Shown here: positions 1,828 through 7,262 of the stretch, in pieces | Numbering within the stretch: position 1 is the first letter of the stretch | How the letters are laid out: every line of letters starts with the position of its first letter | From: a virus | Taxonomy: Duplodnaviria > Heunggongvirae > Uroviricota > Caudoviricetes | Virus record (IMG/VR): IMGVR_UViG_2663763227_000012 | DNA: 20,074 bases | Strand: one strand, 5' to 3' | Made by a program: the position numbers and the translations under genes | Notes under the pieces: generated by a model | Told to the model about the DNA's origin: nothing | The model's input: only the letters and a program-made list of their open reading frames with translations | Database searches by the model: none

Positions 1828-4299
1828 TTAAGAATCAGCCTGACTCGGGATCAGTTTTTGCCAGATAACTGAAACGTATTTTGCCTGGTAACGGGCGTCA
1901 TCAAGTGCATTATGGCGCTCACCTTCGAATGGAATAGCCGTTCTGGCATCGAAGTCTATGGCTTTCCCCAGCTCAACGATTGTGCGTACATCGCGATCGT
2001 TGTAGTAACGCCACGGGCAGGGGATCCCCTGCCGTTCGTATGAACGGCGCAAAATCGTGTTGTCGAAGTTGGCTCCATTTCCCCAAACCTGAACAAAAAA
2101 TTCACCGGAGTTTTCGTCGATAAATTCTCGCAATTGTAACAGTGCATCATCTAACGGGATTTCATCGGTCATAATGGCAGATTGCGCTTCGCGTGATTGC
2201 TTAAGCCACCATTTAATGGTGTCCCGATCAATGACTCCGCCAGCAGTTTCCAGATCGATAGTCTTACTAAATTCCGGTCCCATATCTCCGGTTTGCGGAT
2301 CGAAAAATATTGCACCTATTGAGATGATCGGGGCATCAGGATTTTTTCCCATGGTTTCAAGGTCGATCATTAGATGGTCACACGTCCTGCTGGTGGATGT
2401 GATTTCGTGATGACCGTTCACCTTAATTGGGTGATCTGCCGTCTCGCCAGTTTCATTATCGCTATTGTGATGCTGATTGCCGCCAGTGTTCTCCTTGTGT
2501 GGATGTTCAGCGCCTTCCATTTCCTCCGGATCATCTTCCTGAACTTCAACCTGATACTCTTCATCGAATGTTTCTTGGTATGTTGCGTCGCCCATCACCG
2601 CGCCACAATCAGGGCAGTTGCCGCCGCCGGTCTGACCGCAGGCGGTGCAGACTTTTTCCACTTCCTGTTGCGCTACTGGTTCAGGCTGTTTCGTTTCTGG
2701 CTCGTTTTGTAACGCATTTGGACTGTTTTGTTCCGCTTTTTGGTAGTTCCGTTCCGATTCATGCTGGTTCTGGTTCACAGAATCGCGGGTCTGGAGCCCC
2801 TTAACCCATTTCGGATCATTCGGGTCACTAATCCCTTCAACAAATTCACCACGTGATGCAGCAAGCAACTTATCGGCGTCAGGCTGGCTGATATTGGCTG
2901 CCTGCATAATTTTGTTTACTTCGTCAGCGGTAACTTTTATCGGCTCTGGTTGTTCTGAATCTTCAGCGGTATCTACATTTTGCGGTAAGCCCGTGTATGT
3001 GCCATTTTTTCGGGCAAAATATTCTTCTTTTGTGATTTCAGTGGCGCCAGCAGCCAGTGCCTTATCCAGACCAGAGAGTTTGTTTGCGCGACCGTATTTT
3101 TCTCCGTCCTTATCTGCGAAGAGGAAATAGAACGGCCCCTCACGCTCTACAGATGGTTCAGCTTCCGGCGCGGTTTCATTTTTTGGGATATCAGATACCT
3201 CAGTTTCCACTGCATCAGTTTGTGTTTCTGATGACTGGAGAACATCAACAGTGCCCAGGTCTGTTTCTTCATTCTCAAACACGCCCTTTGTCGTCAGGTA
3301 TTCGCAGATATATTTGTTCAGTGCTACGGGATCTTTGTGAATGTCGATCGGACGCTCACGGACAAGGCCAAAAATAGTTTGGCGGTCGTAGCGAAGGGCA
3401 TCAGGCTGTTTGCGCATTGATGCCGAGATACGCTTCCAGTCTTCGCGGTCGTTGTCGATAACTTCTTTTTTTGCCCAGCGATGGATGCTGCCGTCAATGT
3501 TTCCGGCATCCACATCACTAGGCCAGAGAGCGTAGGCCAGTTCGTCATCCAGTGTTTTCCATGTCTGCTTGTATTCGCGATGAATGGCAGCAATGACCGG
3601 GCTGATTTTTCCTGTTGAATTTTCAGTGTACTGTTGATTGGCTCTGGCGCGGGCGAGATCAACAACAGACGTGTATTTTCCGGTTTCCTTGCGTTCACCT
3701 TCGCGACGTTTTTTCCAGATGCGCATCTCTGCCTGAATTTCGGGCCATTTGGCACCAGGCTTACATTTATGCTTAACCCACCCGATGGCATGCAGCTTAA
3801 GCTCCGGATACATGGCGTTAACTTCTGGCATTTTCATCAACGCTTCAACGATATGTCCGTCGAATGTTGCCATGTCTTCCTGCAACAATTCCTGCGCGCT
3901 AATCACCATATCAACGGTGATGTTTTCACATGTGTCGAACTTAACCATGACAGCGTTCTGTACTTCAGGGGCCAGCTTGTCAAAAGTGACGTTCATCGGA
4001 TCGGATTCAGTCTCAACCGGGACAAAAGAAGCAGACTCCTCATCCCAGCGGTTTTCCTGCATATATTCAGCATCCCATGAATCGAGGGCAGGGCGGGGTA
4101 TGCCAGGTTTATCCTCGCAGACAATAAATTTATAAGCGCAGTCCTGAGCAGCCGGATAATGTTCCAGGAATTGCCAGTGAAATTTTGCTCGAGCACGGCG
4201 TTCGTCGCCAGCTTCAATGGCTGTGGCTACAGCCACAGCGCCTTCTTCCCTTGTTGCCAGTTCGTCAGGAATAGCGGCGCAAATAAAGACTTTACTCAT
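1828..4299 (-). CDS. Large prophage protein with C-terminal DnaQ-like DEDDh 3'-5' exonuclease domain and a CxxC-x7-CxxC zinc ribbon
   Basis: ORF 1828..4335 (track starts at a TTG); I prefer the ATG at 4299 (MSKVFICAAIPDE...), which has a GAGG about 10 nt upstream. Exo I (MIDLETMG), Exo II (VWGNGANFD) and Exo III (HNALDDARY) motifs lie in the last ~185 aa (nt ~1831-2390). Zinc ribbon VCTACGQTGGGNCPDCG at nt ~2599-2655. N-terminus resembles the K-12 Qin ydfE fragment from memory. Confidence 0.75.
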   Translation of the reverse strand: MSKVFICAAIPDELATREEGAVAVATAIEAGDERRARAKFHWQFLEHYPAAQDCAYKFIVCEDKPGIPRPALDSWDAEYMQENRWDEESASFVPVETESDPMNVTFDKLAPEVQNAVMVKFDTCENITVDMVISAQELLQEDMATFDGHIVEALMKMPEVNAMYPELKLHAIGWVKHKCKPGAKWPEIQAEMRIWKKRREGERKETGKYTSVVDLARARANQQYTENSTGKISPVIAAIHREYKQTWKTLDDELAYALWPSDVDAGNIDGSIHRWAKKEVIDNDREDWKRISASMRKQPDALRYDRQTIFGLVRERPIDIHKDPVALNKYICEYLTTKGVFENEETDLGTVDVLQSSETQTDAVETEVSDIPKNETAPEAEPSVEREGPFYFLFADKDGEKYGRANKLSGLDKALAAGATEITKEEYFARKNGTYTGLPQNVDTAEDSEQPEPIKVTADEVNKIMQAANISQPDADKLLAASRGEFVEGISDPNDPKWVKGLQTRDSVNQNQHESERNYQKAEQNSPNALQNEPETKQPEPVAQQEVEKVCTACGQTGGGNCPDCGAVMGDATYQETFDEEYQVEVQEDDPEEMEGAEHPHKENTGGNQHHNSDNETGETADHPIKVNGHHEITSTSRTCDHLMIDLETMGKNPDAPIISIGAIFFDPQTGDMGPEFSKTIDLETAGGVIDRDTIKWWLKQSREAQSAIMTDEIPLDDALLQLREFIDENSGEFFVQVWGNGANFDNTILRRSYERQGIPCPWRYYNDRDVRTIVELGKAIDFDARTAIPFEGERHNALDDARYQAKYVSVIWQKLIPSQADS

Positions 4300-4391
4300 T
4301 TGTTTTAACCTCATGACAGATTTAAGGATGAACAAATCCCTGCCATTGTTGGCATATAAGAATGAAACCGGATATTTATTACGGAACTGTT

Positions 4392-4768: not shown

Positions 4769-4937
4769 TATCGCGTCCTCAACAATGAATTTTGTGATGC
4801 AGTGCCTGGTGCCTCCAGGTGACGTTAACCAGTTAACAATTAACGCCGGATACAGAGAATCCACCCATAACACTGTTTTTGGTTTTAACTGTTCCGCGTG
4901 CGCTTAGCCGCATTCACTGCATCACAAAATTCACTTT

Positions 4938-4995
4938 AAAAAGGGCGGCAGAGCAGTCACGGAGTAAAACTGATACCGCCAAACGTCACCAGAAA
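4938..4995 (-). ncRNA. dicF: DicF small regulatory RNA (ftsZ-targeting sRNA)
   Basis: Reverse complement of 4938-4995 reads TTTCTGGTGACGTTTGGCGGTATCAGTTTTACTCCGTGACTGCTCTGCCGCCCTTTTT, the DicF sequence with its terminal GC stem and U-tail. Lies between ydfC and dicB as in Qin. Confidence 0.85.
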
Positions 4996-5335
4996 ATTGA
5001 TAACAGAGGGCGTTGCAGCGGGGTTGTCACTTAAGCGTATGGTCAACCTGACAACCCGGTGTCCTCAACGGGGAAGGAATAACCCCGCCATACTTACCGC
5101 CGCGCCATTTCGCGGGTTGCCACAACCGGAAGCGCACGGTCGACGAAAATTTAACGACAGGCTATCTATGAACCAGCTACCTCGCCGTGCGCTTTCGCGT
5201 TATGGTCTGACTTTTCAGGGAAATATCCTTTCAGTAAACTGTCAGTTCCGGATGCGCACCCGTGTCCGGCGCACGCACTCCACCTCACCCGTGGAGAACT
5301 CCTTAATTACTAACCTTAGCTTTGTTGATTAGCTA

Positions 5336-5554
5336 CTAACGCGGGTATGTAATCATTCTGGCAATGCTTAATGCCGCTGCTTTTTCCAGATTGGTGATAT
5401 CCTGCTCCAGAGCGGACAGATTTTCAGCCTGCTTAGCCCTGGCTTCATTGGCCCATTTCAGATCCTGCGCTGCATTAATTTTCTGGCGCATCCACTCATA
5501 AAGTTCATCATCGGTATAGTCTGGCGCGATGATGACGGGTTCTCGTTTCTGCAT
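5336..5554 (-). CDS. ydfC: YdfC-like small protein of the dicB operon
   Basis: 72-aa ORF (MQKREPVIIAPDYTDDELYEWMRQKINAAQDLKWANEARAK...), same strand and order as the Qin dicB operon. Confidence 0.75.
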   Translation of the reverse strand: MQKREPVIIAPDYTDDELYEWMRQKINAAQDLKWANEARAKQAENLSALEQDITNLEKAAALSIARMITYPR

Positions 5555-5583
5555 ACTGATTCCTCGCGGTGCTGTTTCGCTTA

Positions 5584-5712
5584 TCAGCCGTTAGATTTTG
5601 CCGAACTGGAAAGCGCCTGTTTAAACTCACTGAAGCTGAGAGCTTCTTCGCCTTCGGCAAGGCCTTCGAAGTATTCTTCGTAAGCCTTTTCCATGATTGT
5701 GTCGAAATCCAT
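5584..5712 (-). CDS. ydfB: YdfB-like small acidic protein
   Basis: Hand-translated 42-aa ORF (MDFDTIMEKAYEEYFEGLAEGEEALSFSEFKQALSSSAKSNG), below the track cutoff. The track ORFs 5508..5717 and 5569..5766 overlap it in other frames. Confidence 0.7.
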   Translation of the reverse strand: MDFDTIMEKAYEEYFEGLAEGEEALSFSEFKQALSSSAKSNG

Positions 5713-5713
5713 A

Positions 5714-5869
5714 TCACTCACCTGAGTTTCTTTCCAGCCAGCGACGGGCACCATTTTCGGTTTTAAACGTTTTGCTTTTGGTATACGTCATTGCGGTGAA
5801 CGTGCCGTCCTGGTTTGGAAACACGCCGTACACCAGAGATTCGTTGTTGCCAAGATCGATAGTATCCAT
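5714..5869 (-). CDS. ydfA: YdfA-like small protein
   Basis: 51 aa from internal Met of ORF 5714..5947 (MDTIDLGNNESLVYGVFPNQDGTFTAMTYTKSKTFKTENGARRWLERNSGE). First gene after the promoter region downstream of dicA. Confidence 0.7.
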   Translation of the reverse strand: MDTIDLGNNESLVYGVFPNQDGTFTAMTYTKSKTFKTENGARRWLERNSGE

Positions 5870-5949
5870 GCTGACCTCATTTCCCCTTAACGCTGGGGTA
5901 GCGGAACTGTTTGCTGAGAACACCGTGCGGTGTGTTGATGCAAACAAGA

Positions 5950-6035
5950 TTAGCCATGACTAACATATCGGTCAAGTGATTTTGTATGCTATAGCTAACA
6001 TAATTGATGTGGTAAAAGATAACTCATTGATGATG
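5950..6035 (-). promoter_or_regulatory. Candidate promoter/operator region of the dicB operon
   Basis: Intergenic between the dicA stop (6036) and the ydfA start (5869). Contains TGACTAACAT (5957-5966) and TAGCTAACAT (5992-6001), related to the palindromes in the dicA-dicC intergenic region, plus a hairpin AGATAAC-N11-GTTATCT (6017-6041) overlapping the dicA stop. Confidence 0.35.
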
Positions 6036-6443
6036 TTATCTTTTATTTGTCCGCTGACGGGCTTTTAGTAATTCTTCAAAGAGTTTATTGAAGTTTTTTA
6101 CTCGAGCTCGCATTTCGGCGAGCTGGGTATCCTGTTCTGATTCTGGCAGTGCATTAAACAGCTCAAGGAGCTCTAGTTCTTTGGGGGATAAGGCAACTGG
6201 CTTCTCAACAGGTGGTGTTGGTTGCTTGTCTTCATCGCCAAATAGAATCCATGTTGGTGAGCATTGCAATACTTTGCTGAGGGCAAAAAGGTTCTTCCCT
6301 GTAGGTTCACTATCACCCCGTTCCCATTGTGATACAGACACATGGGAGATTTTCAGGGCTTTAGCAAGAGACCTTTGGGTGTGTTTGAGGTTTTTCCGAC
6401 GATACCTGATGCGTTCGCCGATAGTTAAATTTTTTGTTTCCAT
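6036..6443 (-). CDS. dicA: Prophage repressor DicA (HTH_XRE, c2/cI-like)
   Basis: 135-aa ORF (METKNLTIGERIRYRRKNLKHTQRSLAKALKISHVSVSQWERGDSEPT...) with an N-terminal HTH, divergent from dicC. Confidence 0.9.
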   Translation of the reverse strand: METKNLTIGERIRYRRKNLKHTQRSLAKALKISHVSVSQWERGDSEPTGKNLFALSKVLQCSPTWILFGDEDKQPTPPVEKPVALSPKELELLELFNALPESEQDTQLAEMRARVKNFNKLFEELLKARQRTNKR

Positions 6444-6526
6444 AGTTAGCTAATGCTAAATCGTATTGACTATGTTTTTGTTAACATCTATCTTGTTAGT
6501 TATGACTAACAATAAAGGTGTTTTAA
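6444..6526. promoter_or_regulatory. Divergent dicA/dicC promoter-operator region
   Basis: 83-bp intergenic region with palindrome TTAGCTAA (6446-6453) and a perfect 8-bp inverted repeat TTGTTAGT-tatg-ACTAACAA (6493-6512), plus a TTGACT hexamer near 6469. Confidence 0.55.
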
Positions 6527-6757
6527 ATGCTTAAAACTGACGCTCTTTTGTATTTCGGTTCAAAAACAAAACTTGCACAAGCAGCAGGTATTCGTTTGGC
6601 TTCGCTTTATAGCTGGAAAGGGGATTTAGTTCCCGAAGGTCGCGCGATGCGTCTACAGGAGGCATCTGGCGGGGAGCTTCAGTATGATCCCAAAGTTTAT
6701 GATGAATATCGTAAGACGAAGCGGGCGGGGCGGTTGAACAATGAAAATCACTCCTGA
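6527..6757 (+). CDS. dicC: Cro-like regulator DicC
   Basis: 76-aa ORF (MLKTDALLYFGSKTKLAQAAGIRLASLYSWKGDLVPEGRAMRLQEASGGELQYDPKVYDEYRKTKRAGRLNNENHS), divergent from dicA. Confidence 0.85.
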   Translation: MLKTDALLYFGSKTKLAQAAGIRLASLYSWKGDLVPEGRAMRLQEASGGELQYDPKVYDEYRKTKRAGRLNNENHS

Positions 6758-7262
6758 ACAGGCTCGTGAGGCTCTGGATGCCTGGATATGTCGACCAGGA
6801 ATGACACAGGAGCAGGCGACGATATTAATCACTGAAGCATTCTGGGCTTTGAAAGAGCGCCCGAACATCGATGTTCAGCGTGTCACATATGAAGGTGGCG
6901 CGATTGATCAGCGAGCGCTTGGCGTTAATCGAGTGAAGATATTTGAACGCTGGAAGGCTATCGACACCAGGGATAAGCGTGAAAAGTTCACGGCGCTAGT
7001 GCCTGCAATTATGGAGGCTATCCGGATTAATGATTTCAGGTTGTATCGTGAAATTACTGACGGAAAAAGCATCACGTGCATGATCGCCGGGTTAAACAAA
7101 GAATATGGCGATGTGGTGGAGTCCGGACTGCTTTTTGCTGATCCTGCCGTAGTGGATCGTGAAACTGACGAACTTATAGAAAAAGCAATTGCTTTCAAAC
7201 TTGCGTATCGACAGCAATACCAACAAAAAGCTGGATGGAATTATGAGCCTTCTTTTTGCTGA
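6741..7262 (+). CDS. YdaT-like early protein (CII-position regulator family)
   Basis: 173-aa ORF overlapping the dicC 3' end. The central segment (ERWKAIDTRDKREKFTALVPAIMEAI) resembles the conserved core of Rac YdaT as recalled. Confidence 0.6.
   Translation: MKITPEQAREALDAWICRPGMTQEQATILITEAFWALKERPNIDVQRVTYEGGAIDQRALGVNRVKIFERWKAIDTRDKREKFTALVPAIMEAIRINDFRLYREITDGKSITCMIAGLNKEYGDVVESGLLFADPAVVDRETDELIEKAIAFKLAYRQQYQQKAGWNYEPSFC

Follow-up and report, generated by a model that had tools for sequence, protein, structure and literature searches.

In phage lambda, the cI-rexAB transcript is closed by the terminator tIMM, which is followed by the operators OL1-3 and the early promoter PL, with the three operators spaced at 20-24 bp. 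In P22, whose corresponding elements are C2, OL, PL, and OR, the operators are 18 bp long and have a 4-bp centre. A third system, dicBp of the Qin prophage (Bejar, Bouche and Bouche 1988, Mol Gen Genet 212:11; Ragunathan et al. 2023, J Bacteriol 205:e00129-23), is the very locus analyzed in this work, and it should be stressed that this control region is already known in substance and that its layout was proposed for the locus in 1988. As cited in the later paper (PMC10448788), Bejar et al. 1988 considered dicBp a PL-like, DicA-repressed promoter with operators in the dicA-dicBp interval, and Ragunathan et al. (PMC10448788) themselves mention "three operator sequences". Direct binding of DicA has been documented, by an in vivo assay, for the operator Oc only; it was DicA-dependent and was abolished by the change of CTAACAA to CTCACAA, while Oa and Om alone were reported (data not shown) to give no DicA binding in vivo (Yun et al. 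2012). At dicBp, DicA "is predicted to bind" (Ragunathan et al. 2023, PMC10448788), and the RegulonDB-derived text of Reg-Seq (eLife 2020) lists the DicA site at dicB as "low evidence, location unknown". The Reg-Seq (eLife 2020) data were found to be uninformative for dicBp, since a predicted start at K-12 position 1649597, just upstream of dicB, was used there.

The window, i.e., the whole 20,074-nucleotide stretch of viral DNA analyzed here (IMG/VR record IMGVR_UViG_2663763227_000012), carries a Qin-type lambdoid prophage immunity locus, as identified by its ORF listing and by similarity searches. The repressor gene dicA (6443..6036, minus strand), an ORF encoding a 135-aa P22 C2-like HTH protein (Pfam HTH_3 at 1.3e-16), is annotated under this name in the identical record of E. 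coli ATCC 8739, with which positions 5850-6550 share 100% identity, and dicC (6527..6757, plus strand) is divergent from it. On the other side, ydfA (5714..5869, minus strand; DUF1391), recognized by its ORF, annotation, and Pfam match, is the first gene of the dicBF operon and is followed on the same strand by ydfB, ydfC, dicB, and ydfD, alongside DicF (4994..4943, minus strand; Rfam, 76.7 bits). In an Rfam scan of positions 4900-6600, DicF alone was matched, with no match inside the interval between dicA and ydfA. In the full-length phage record PhiR42_1, the immunity region is 99.7% identical and annotated as cI/Cro. Within the interval, no K-12 primer or Term-seq string taken from the literature differs from the window at any position, and therefore the experiments performed in K-12 apply directly here.

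Compared with lambda, the locus shows the order of tIMM-OL-PL (repressor gene, terminator, and operators over an outward-facing early promoter), and the similarity extends to half-sites shared between these operators and the divergent repressor/cro promoters, to a Cro-like second repressor, and to bistability. The differences from lambda concern the operators, as the two operator-like sites are 35-36 bp apart; the repressor, as DicA is short (135 aa), has no Ala-Gly bond for RecA-dependent cleavage, and is switched off by the antirepressor Rem (PMC10448788); and the terminator, which is much weaker than tIMM and overlaps the stop codon. Unlike in lambda, no N/nut system was identified at the locus. 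With the C2/OL/PL/OR system of P22, the locus shares the N-terminal domain of DicA, homologous to the P22 C2 DNA-binding domain (E = 8e-20), the DicC protein, which matches Pfam P22_Cro, and palindromic half-sites of the ...TAG/CTA... kind; however, the DicA operator measures 20 bp, TTAG and CTAA being 6 bp apart, and the C-terminal domain of DicA differs from that of C2. On the evidence presented below, we regard it as highly probable that this lambdoid immunity region holds two neighbouring elements with separate functions, a terminator hairpin of dicA and dicBp with two operators, here called OB1 and OB2.

The layout of the region is simple: the end of dicA at 6036 is followed on the same strand by a -35/-10 pair (5975..5947) and then by the start of ydfA at 5869. 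The -35 hexamer TTGACC (5970..5975, minus strand) agrees with the consensus in 5/6 positions and lies within the promoter homology arm of primer O-PR124, whereas the -10 hexamer TAATCT (5947..5952, minus strand), replaced by TAAATT in other immunity types, agrees in 3/6; the spacer between them has 17 nt. Transcription would start at 5939..5940 (minus strand), 7-8 nt past the -10, and it is also about here that the immunity-specific sequence passes into a leader common to all types. In the published in-locus dicBp-lacZ fusion, the construct was joined through a 40-nt upstream arm, CACTTGACC...TAATCTTGTTTGCA (Ragunathan et al. 2023, PMC10448788), which, mapped to the window, ends exactly at A5939, and the expression of dicBp in this fusion was raised 165-fold by Rem (PMC10448788). 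The minimal dicBp fragment of 113 bp (5923..6035, minus strand), obtained with primers O-PR241/O-PR242 for an ectopic dicBp-lacZ fusion (Ragunathan et al. 2023, Table S2), responded to the deletion of dicA with 22-fold derepression at the ectopic site (Ragunathan et al. 2023, PMC10448788). The published lacZ fusions, together with the conservation of the hexamers described below, support the identification of the predicted sigma-70 promoter TTGACC-17-TAATCT as dicBp. A consensus promoter/terminator scan of positions 5200-6800 gave no minus-strand call in the interval, which was not counted against the elements proposed here, because both the -10 and the hairpin fall below the thresholds of the scan. 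The sequence-only reading of this DNA had placed the promoter of the dicB operon downstream of dicA and under the control of the same repressor as the dicA/dicC palindromes; dicBp sits within the interval, not beyond it.

The second part of that claim, a shared repressor, is supported by three lines of evidence, namely the operator-like palindromes over the -35/-10 pair, their co-variation in heteroimmune relatives, and the DicA-repressed 113-bp fragment. The half-sites themselves, TGACTAACAT at 5957-5966 and TAGCTAACAT at 5992-6001, were found exactly where they had been reported, although only one arm had been seen per operator and the full palindromes had been missed. Read on the minus strand, each CTAACA half-site forms the left arm of a putative palindromic operator of 20 bp. 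The promoter-proximal one, OB1 (ATGTTAG-TCATGG-CTAATCT; 5947..5966, minus strand), has the half-site 5957-5966 as its left arm and covers the dicBp spacer and the entire -10. Its core TTAGTCATGGCTAA (5963..5950) is an exact TTAGY-N4-RCTAA palindrome, and a contiguous stretch of 10 nt, TGTTAGTCAT, is identical to Oc. The upstream one, OB2 (ATGTTAG-CTATAG-CATACAA; 5982..6001, minus strand), ends 6 bp upstream of the -35; its left arm (the half-site 5992-6001) is intact and its right arm is degenerate, with a T at the position where the A-to-C change kills Oc. The core of OB2, TATGCTATAGCTAA, has 2 mismatches, a level that is frequent by chance. The reference operator Oc (TTGTTAGTCATAACTAACAA on the minus strand; 6493..6512), located in the dicA/dicC intergenic region, is identical in the window to the sequence of Yun et al. 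2012, and the Oa core TTAGCTAATGCTAA (6446..6459) adjoins the start of dicA.

The statistical weight of these similarities depends strongly on the motif chosen. The CTAACA hexamer is not enriched in the window (5 copies found vs. 8.4 expected); 4/5 copies fall in a 552-bp part of the immunity region, and among these are both arms of the validated operator Oc. The core palindrome TTAGYNNNNRCTAA (TTAGY-N4-RCTAA), on the other hand, occurs in exactly 3 copies (5950-5963, 6446-6459, and 6496-6509) vs. 0.02 expected in 20 kb, a number reached in 0/100 shuffles, and all the copies are located in the immunity region; when 1-2 mismatches are allowed, the counts are at chance level. Scored over the 14 arm positions of Oc, OB2 reaches 11/14 (the second best site in the window) and OB1 10/14, a score that it shares with five further sites, of which one is Oa and the rest are unrelated. 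About 9 sites with scores of at least 10 are expected per 20 kb, and the counts fit the Markov null; the 20-mer Oc-arm score was therefore rejected as stand-alone evidence. As the arm score is not significant alone, the case for the operators rests on the core palindrome, the position of the sites, and the comparative data.

For the Qin dicBp, three operator sequences are mentioned in the literature, whereas this analysis yielded two convincing ones. The 113-bp fragment was scored for Oc-like sites and none was found besides OB1 and OB2. A candidate for the third operator, TTGTTTGCATCAACACACCG (5947..5928, 9/14), was rejected, as its arm positions vary among type A variants and its right half falls within the leader common to all immunity types. 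The palindrome of the hairpin at the dicA 3' end was likewise rejected in this role, as it shows no half-site similarity.

For the comparative analysis, 80 loci encoding YdfA were collected from IMG/VR viral contigs, giving 44 distinct upstream sequences. In 41/80 loci ydfA has no adjacent immunity region, and the remainder represent about seven immunity types with different repressors. The -35 is kept as TTGAC[CGA] or TTGCCT in all immunity-linked types and the -10 as TAATCT or TAAATT in most of them, the 17-nt spacer recurs in the immunity types that were matched, the sequence around the hexamers changes, and the leader CATCAA[GC]ACACCGCACGGTG... is conserved from about the start site onward. 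Two palindromes always occupy the same places, the first covering the spacer and -10 and the second lying just upstream of the -35, and the distance between their centres is 35-36 bp in the three types for which it was measured (A, B, and C), being 35 bp here. The words of which the palindromes are composed differ by type and recur in the repressor/cro intergenic region of their own locus: TGTTAG-N6-CTAACA in types A and B, ATTGAGTTTTCTCA (in both regions) in type C, CTTAG/CTAAG in type D, CTAC/GTAG in type E, and AAAACC[AT]ATAGTTTT in type F.

Within type B (locus L003, with a DicA protein 56% identical), OB2 is, at the same position, a perfect palindrome, TTGTTAGACTAATCTAACAA (TTGTTAG-ACTAAT-CTAACAA), while OB1 keeps TGTTAG-N6-CTAA and has a different centre. 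The four type A variants differ in the 6-bp centres and in the flanks but all have the same arms, TGTTAG and CTAA. A matrix of the 7-mers common to the repressor/cro and the PL-like regions was dominated by A-rich, low-complexity words, and the comparison was therefore based on explicit palindromes and on the longest word that two regions have in common. Within a locus this word has 8-16 nt, and in most comparisons across types it has 6-9 nt (in a few, 9-10 nt). Operators recognized by the repressor of their own locus classically show such co-variation, and it is the main evidence that the half-sites are functional; DicA would contact both OB1, as the occluding site, and OB2, as an auxiliary site, probably in a cooperative manner. 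The region shows several features of a lambdoid PL/OL-type early-left control region: its predicted promoter, next to the repressor gene, points away from that gene toward early/toxic genes, two or more candidate palindromic operators have half-sites in common with those of the OR side and one or more of them lie over the promoter, these operators co-vary with the repressor, and a fragment limited to the region shows repressor-dependent activity in the published experiments mapped here.

The second element is the hairpin at the 3' end of dicA. The stem AGATAAC-N11-GTTATCT was confirmed at 6017-6041, where it overlaps the dicA stop codon, and it extends further, to AAAAGATAAC (6014-6023) and GTTATCTTTT (6035-6044), so that the whole structure, AAAAGAUAAC-A-UCAUCAAUGA-GUUAUCUUUU (6014..6044, minus strand), is larger than previously described. 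The stop codon TAA (6038..6036, minus strand) lies in the 5' arm of the hairpin as transcribed. Folded as the dicA-strand RNA, it forms a stem of 11+3 bp, interrupted by one bulge, capped by a UCAA tetraloop, and flanked 5' by an A-tract and 3' by U4, at -11.4 kcal/mol (z = -6.5), with 0/200 shuffles as stable. The stem is AU-rich, with 3 G-C pairs of 14, and the tract UUUUACCA has 4 U of 8; the structure thus departs from the G+C-rich stem-loop with a U-rich tract that defines an intrinsic terminator. In the variant from STEC1588, the hairpin has two extra G-C pairs, U5, and a folding energy of -15.3 kcal/mol. Hairpins with a U-run are present between the repressor stop and the operators in types A3, C, D, E, and F, and those of types E (CCCGGCATTGCCGGG-T8) and F (A6-GCGCC...GGCGC-T7) are canonical terminators, while in type B a fold of the region revealed no hairpin at the position of the dicA 3' end. 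The 5' arm of the hairpin contributes a single base, its last one (6035), to the minimal 113-bp dicBp fragment, in which the stem is therefore not intact; as the fragment is still controlled by DicA, the hairpin is not needed for this control.

An in vivo 3' end of the dicA mRNA is available in the public Term-seq data, in which it is classed as "primary" (supplementary file 1, Adams et al. 2021); read counts of 4704 and 2354 are given in the two entries considered here, out of three occurrences in a file with three condition tabs (Adams et al. 2021). The 3' nucleotide corresponds to position 51 of the Term-seq 61-mer, as calibrated on SgrS and on the coordinate of the dicA stop, and the end thus falls at K-12 1648368(+), i.e., at 6009 of the window (minus strand), where the RNA ends with ...GUUAUCUUUUACCAC-3'. 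This is 27 nt past the stop codon, 9 nt past the GAUAAC/GUUAUC stem, and 5 nt past the full 14-bp stem, and the distance of 9 nt after GUUAUC fits the usual geometry of intrinsic release. The region of dicA is absent from the list of Rho-dependent (bicyclomycin-sensitive) regions in supplementary file 2 (Adams et al. 2021), although absence from a list is weak evidence. The proposal of the sequence-only reading that the hairpin acts as a weak terminator thus gained support from the Term-seq 3' end located 27 nt past the stop and from the U-run hairpins of the other types. The hairpin is probably a weak intrinsic terminator, analogous to lambda tIMM, and it is called weak on account of its AU-rich stem and a tract of no more than four U. 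In a literature search combining dicA and ydfA with terminators, no paper discussing a dicA terminator was found.

Three other explanations were weighed against the reading that a dicA terminator lies next to a DicA-controlled dicBp. The CTAACA-like motifs at 5957-5966 and 5992-6001 could be there by chance, with DicA acting through another sequence of the fragment or indirectly, as their arm scores of 10-11/14 are within the chance expectation for 20 kb and the look-alike Oa reportedly does not bind; this is extremely improbable in view of the statistic of the exact core palindrome, the constant placement of both sites and their co-variation with the immunity type over at least six types, and the lack of any other Oc-like sequence in the 113-bp fragment. 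A rather unlikely, though more serious, explanation concerns the hairpin, which may be an RNA-stability element at which dicA transcripts that end further downstream (at Rho-dependent or other sites) are trimmed by 3' exonucleases. The weak U-tract (UUUUACCAC), the three G-C pairs, the silence of the consensus scan, and the position of the 3' end just 5 nt beyond the full 14-bp stem would all agree with trimming, and the Term-seq authors state that 3' ends alone cannot separate termination from processing (Adams et al. 2021). However, the geometry of the 3' end relative to GUUAUC fits intrinsic release, textbook terminators occupy the same place in heteroimmune relatives, dicA is not among the Rho-dependent regions, and the dicA transcript would otherwise enter dicBF; the 3' end therefore presumably arises by termination rather than by trimming.

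The overlap with the stop codon raises yet another explanation, i.e., that the hairpin is a translation-coupled attenuator, in which a ribosome on the UAA would block folding, so that the extent of read-through would vary with the translation of dicA and its coupling to transcription, providing basal DicF/DicB linked to DicA. With the stop in the 5' arm, about 30 nt separate the P-site of a ribosome standing there from the release point, a distance that a ribosome following closely, given its footprint, can reach. Moreover, according to the literature, DicF is present in the stationary phase in the repressed wild type, independently of Rem, with no other promoter found. Nevertheless, we consider this role improbable, as in the published data dicA mRNA fell 10-fold while dicB mRNA rose 3700-fold, i.e., the bulk of dicB does not follow dicA transcription; in addition, stop-proximal terminators are common and usually have no regulatory meaning, and in the other immunity types the terminators are located 20-60 nt past the repressor stop.

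Returning to the adjacent, functionally separate terminator and promoter, the two elements probably work as follows. The hairpin would serve as a weak Rho-independent terminator, or at least as an element defining the 3' end, for the dicA transcript, and most dicA transcripts would end there, which would limit read-through into the toxic ydfABC-dicF-dicB genes. A DicA dimer bound to OB1 would occlude RNA polymerase, and a second dimer on OB2, probably binding cooperatively, would strengthen the repression; DicC, as a Cro-like protein, would be expected to use OB1 and OB2 as well. Upon the loss of DicA activity, dicBp would open, and the reported routes to such a loss are Rem, heat, urea, and spontaneous switching (PMC10448788). 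It is also conceivable, if doubtful, that the weakness of the terminator makes it a deliberately leaky, translation-sensitive valve, where ribosomes on dicA would transiently block the hairpin and let some DicA-activated transcripts pass the repressed dicBp. Were this so, the valve would be a source of the Rem-independent, low-level DicF of the stationary phase while dicBp stays off.

In relation to the earlier descriptions of this locus, the present analysis adds window coordinates for the two putative operators, placed by means of the co-variation over about seven immunity types, and thereby an operator placement where the databases list the DicA site at dicB with "location unknown". In addition, the hairpin is connected here with an in vivo 3' end of dicA, which stands without comment in a public Term-seq table.

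Two small ORFs, 5877..5975 (minus strand) and 5976..6068 (plus strand), are sited in regulatory sequence that differs between the immunity types.

Comparison of the 80 IMG/VR ydfA loci showed that the type-specific sequence gives way to a leader common to all immunity-linked types at a mosaic boundary located at about position 5940/5941 of the window. This boundary lies within a few nucleotides of the inferred transcription start of dicBp, the promoter of the ydfABC-dicF-dicB operon, and therefore the immunity module has its recombination joint at +1. In 41 of the 80 YdfA-encoding viral contigs (loci L004-L083), neither a repressor gene nor a PL-like region precedes ydfA, which indicates that the ydfA-dicB module also occurs away from an immunity region. 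These 41 contigs carry a different, GC-rich sequence upstream of ydfA, joining at GTTCCGCTACCCC.

Within the leader, a small 5'-proximal hairpin, ACACC-GCAC-GGTGT (5920-5933, minus strand; approximately +7 to +20 of the dicBp transcript), was distinguished, and the comparison of ydfA loci revealed that the leader containing it is common to most immunity types. At the same position, different hairpins are present in the leaders of type E (GCAC-AACG-GTGC) and type F (ACAACGA-ACCGCA-TCGTTGT). As these two types carry different hairpins at the same place, the sequences suggest a conserved structural role for this element, e.g., as a 5' stabiliser, a nut-like site or an RNase site; the RNAalifold alignment of six sequences contained only one compensatory pair. 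Further downstream, a CCCC-N8-GGGG stem (5883-5898, minus strand) is localized directly 5' of the ydfA Shine-Dalgarno sequence GAGG (5878..5875, minus strand). The stem is invariant and was found in all ydfA loci examined, even those without an immunity region, and since it shows almost no variation, it provides no covariation evidence.

The middle operator of the dicA/dicC region, Om (6472-6487), resembles ATGTT-N6-AACAT, and its half-site arrangement is unlike that of Oc and Oa of the same region and of OB1 and OB2, the candidate DicA operators at dicBp. This deviation, seen in the sequence, is consistent with the reported failure of Om to bind DicA on its own (Yun et al. 2012).

The region 6014-6062 was also read on the plus strand. 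In this orientation, a better T-run (TTTTATTTG) than on the minus strand comes after the dicA 3' hairpin, and next to appear is another hairpin resembling a terminator, GTCCGCTGACGGGC-TTTT, located inside the dicA 3' coding end. At K-12 1648695(-), corresponding approximately to window position 5682 on the plus strand, Adams et al. reported a Rho-dependent 3' end that lies antisense to ydfA/ydfB. The dicA 3' hairpin element may be bidirectional, protecting dicA against antisense transcription.

The Term-seq data of Adams et al. also include an 'orphan' 3' end at K-12 1649368/9(+), which falls at window position 5008 (minus strand). The 5' end of DicF (4994) lies 14 nt downstream of this site, and the orphan end probably belongs to the upstream fragment left when RNase E cleaves the transcript to generate the 53-nt DicF.

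Downstream of ydfD, the window contains an uninterrupted 835-aa ORF (1828-4335, minus strand), annotated as an exonuclease in ATCC 8739. The corresponding position in K-12 is occupied by the truncated ydfE/IS2 remnant, and the prophage copy in the window is less decayed than K-12 Qin.
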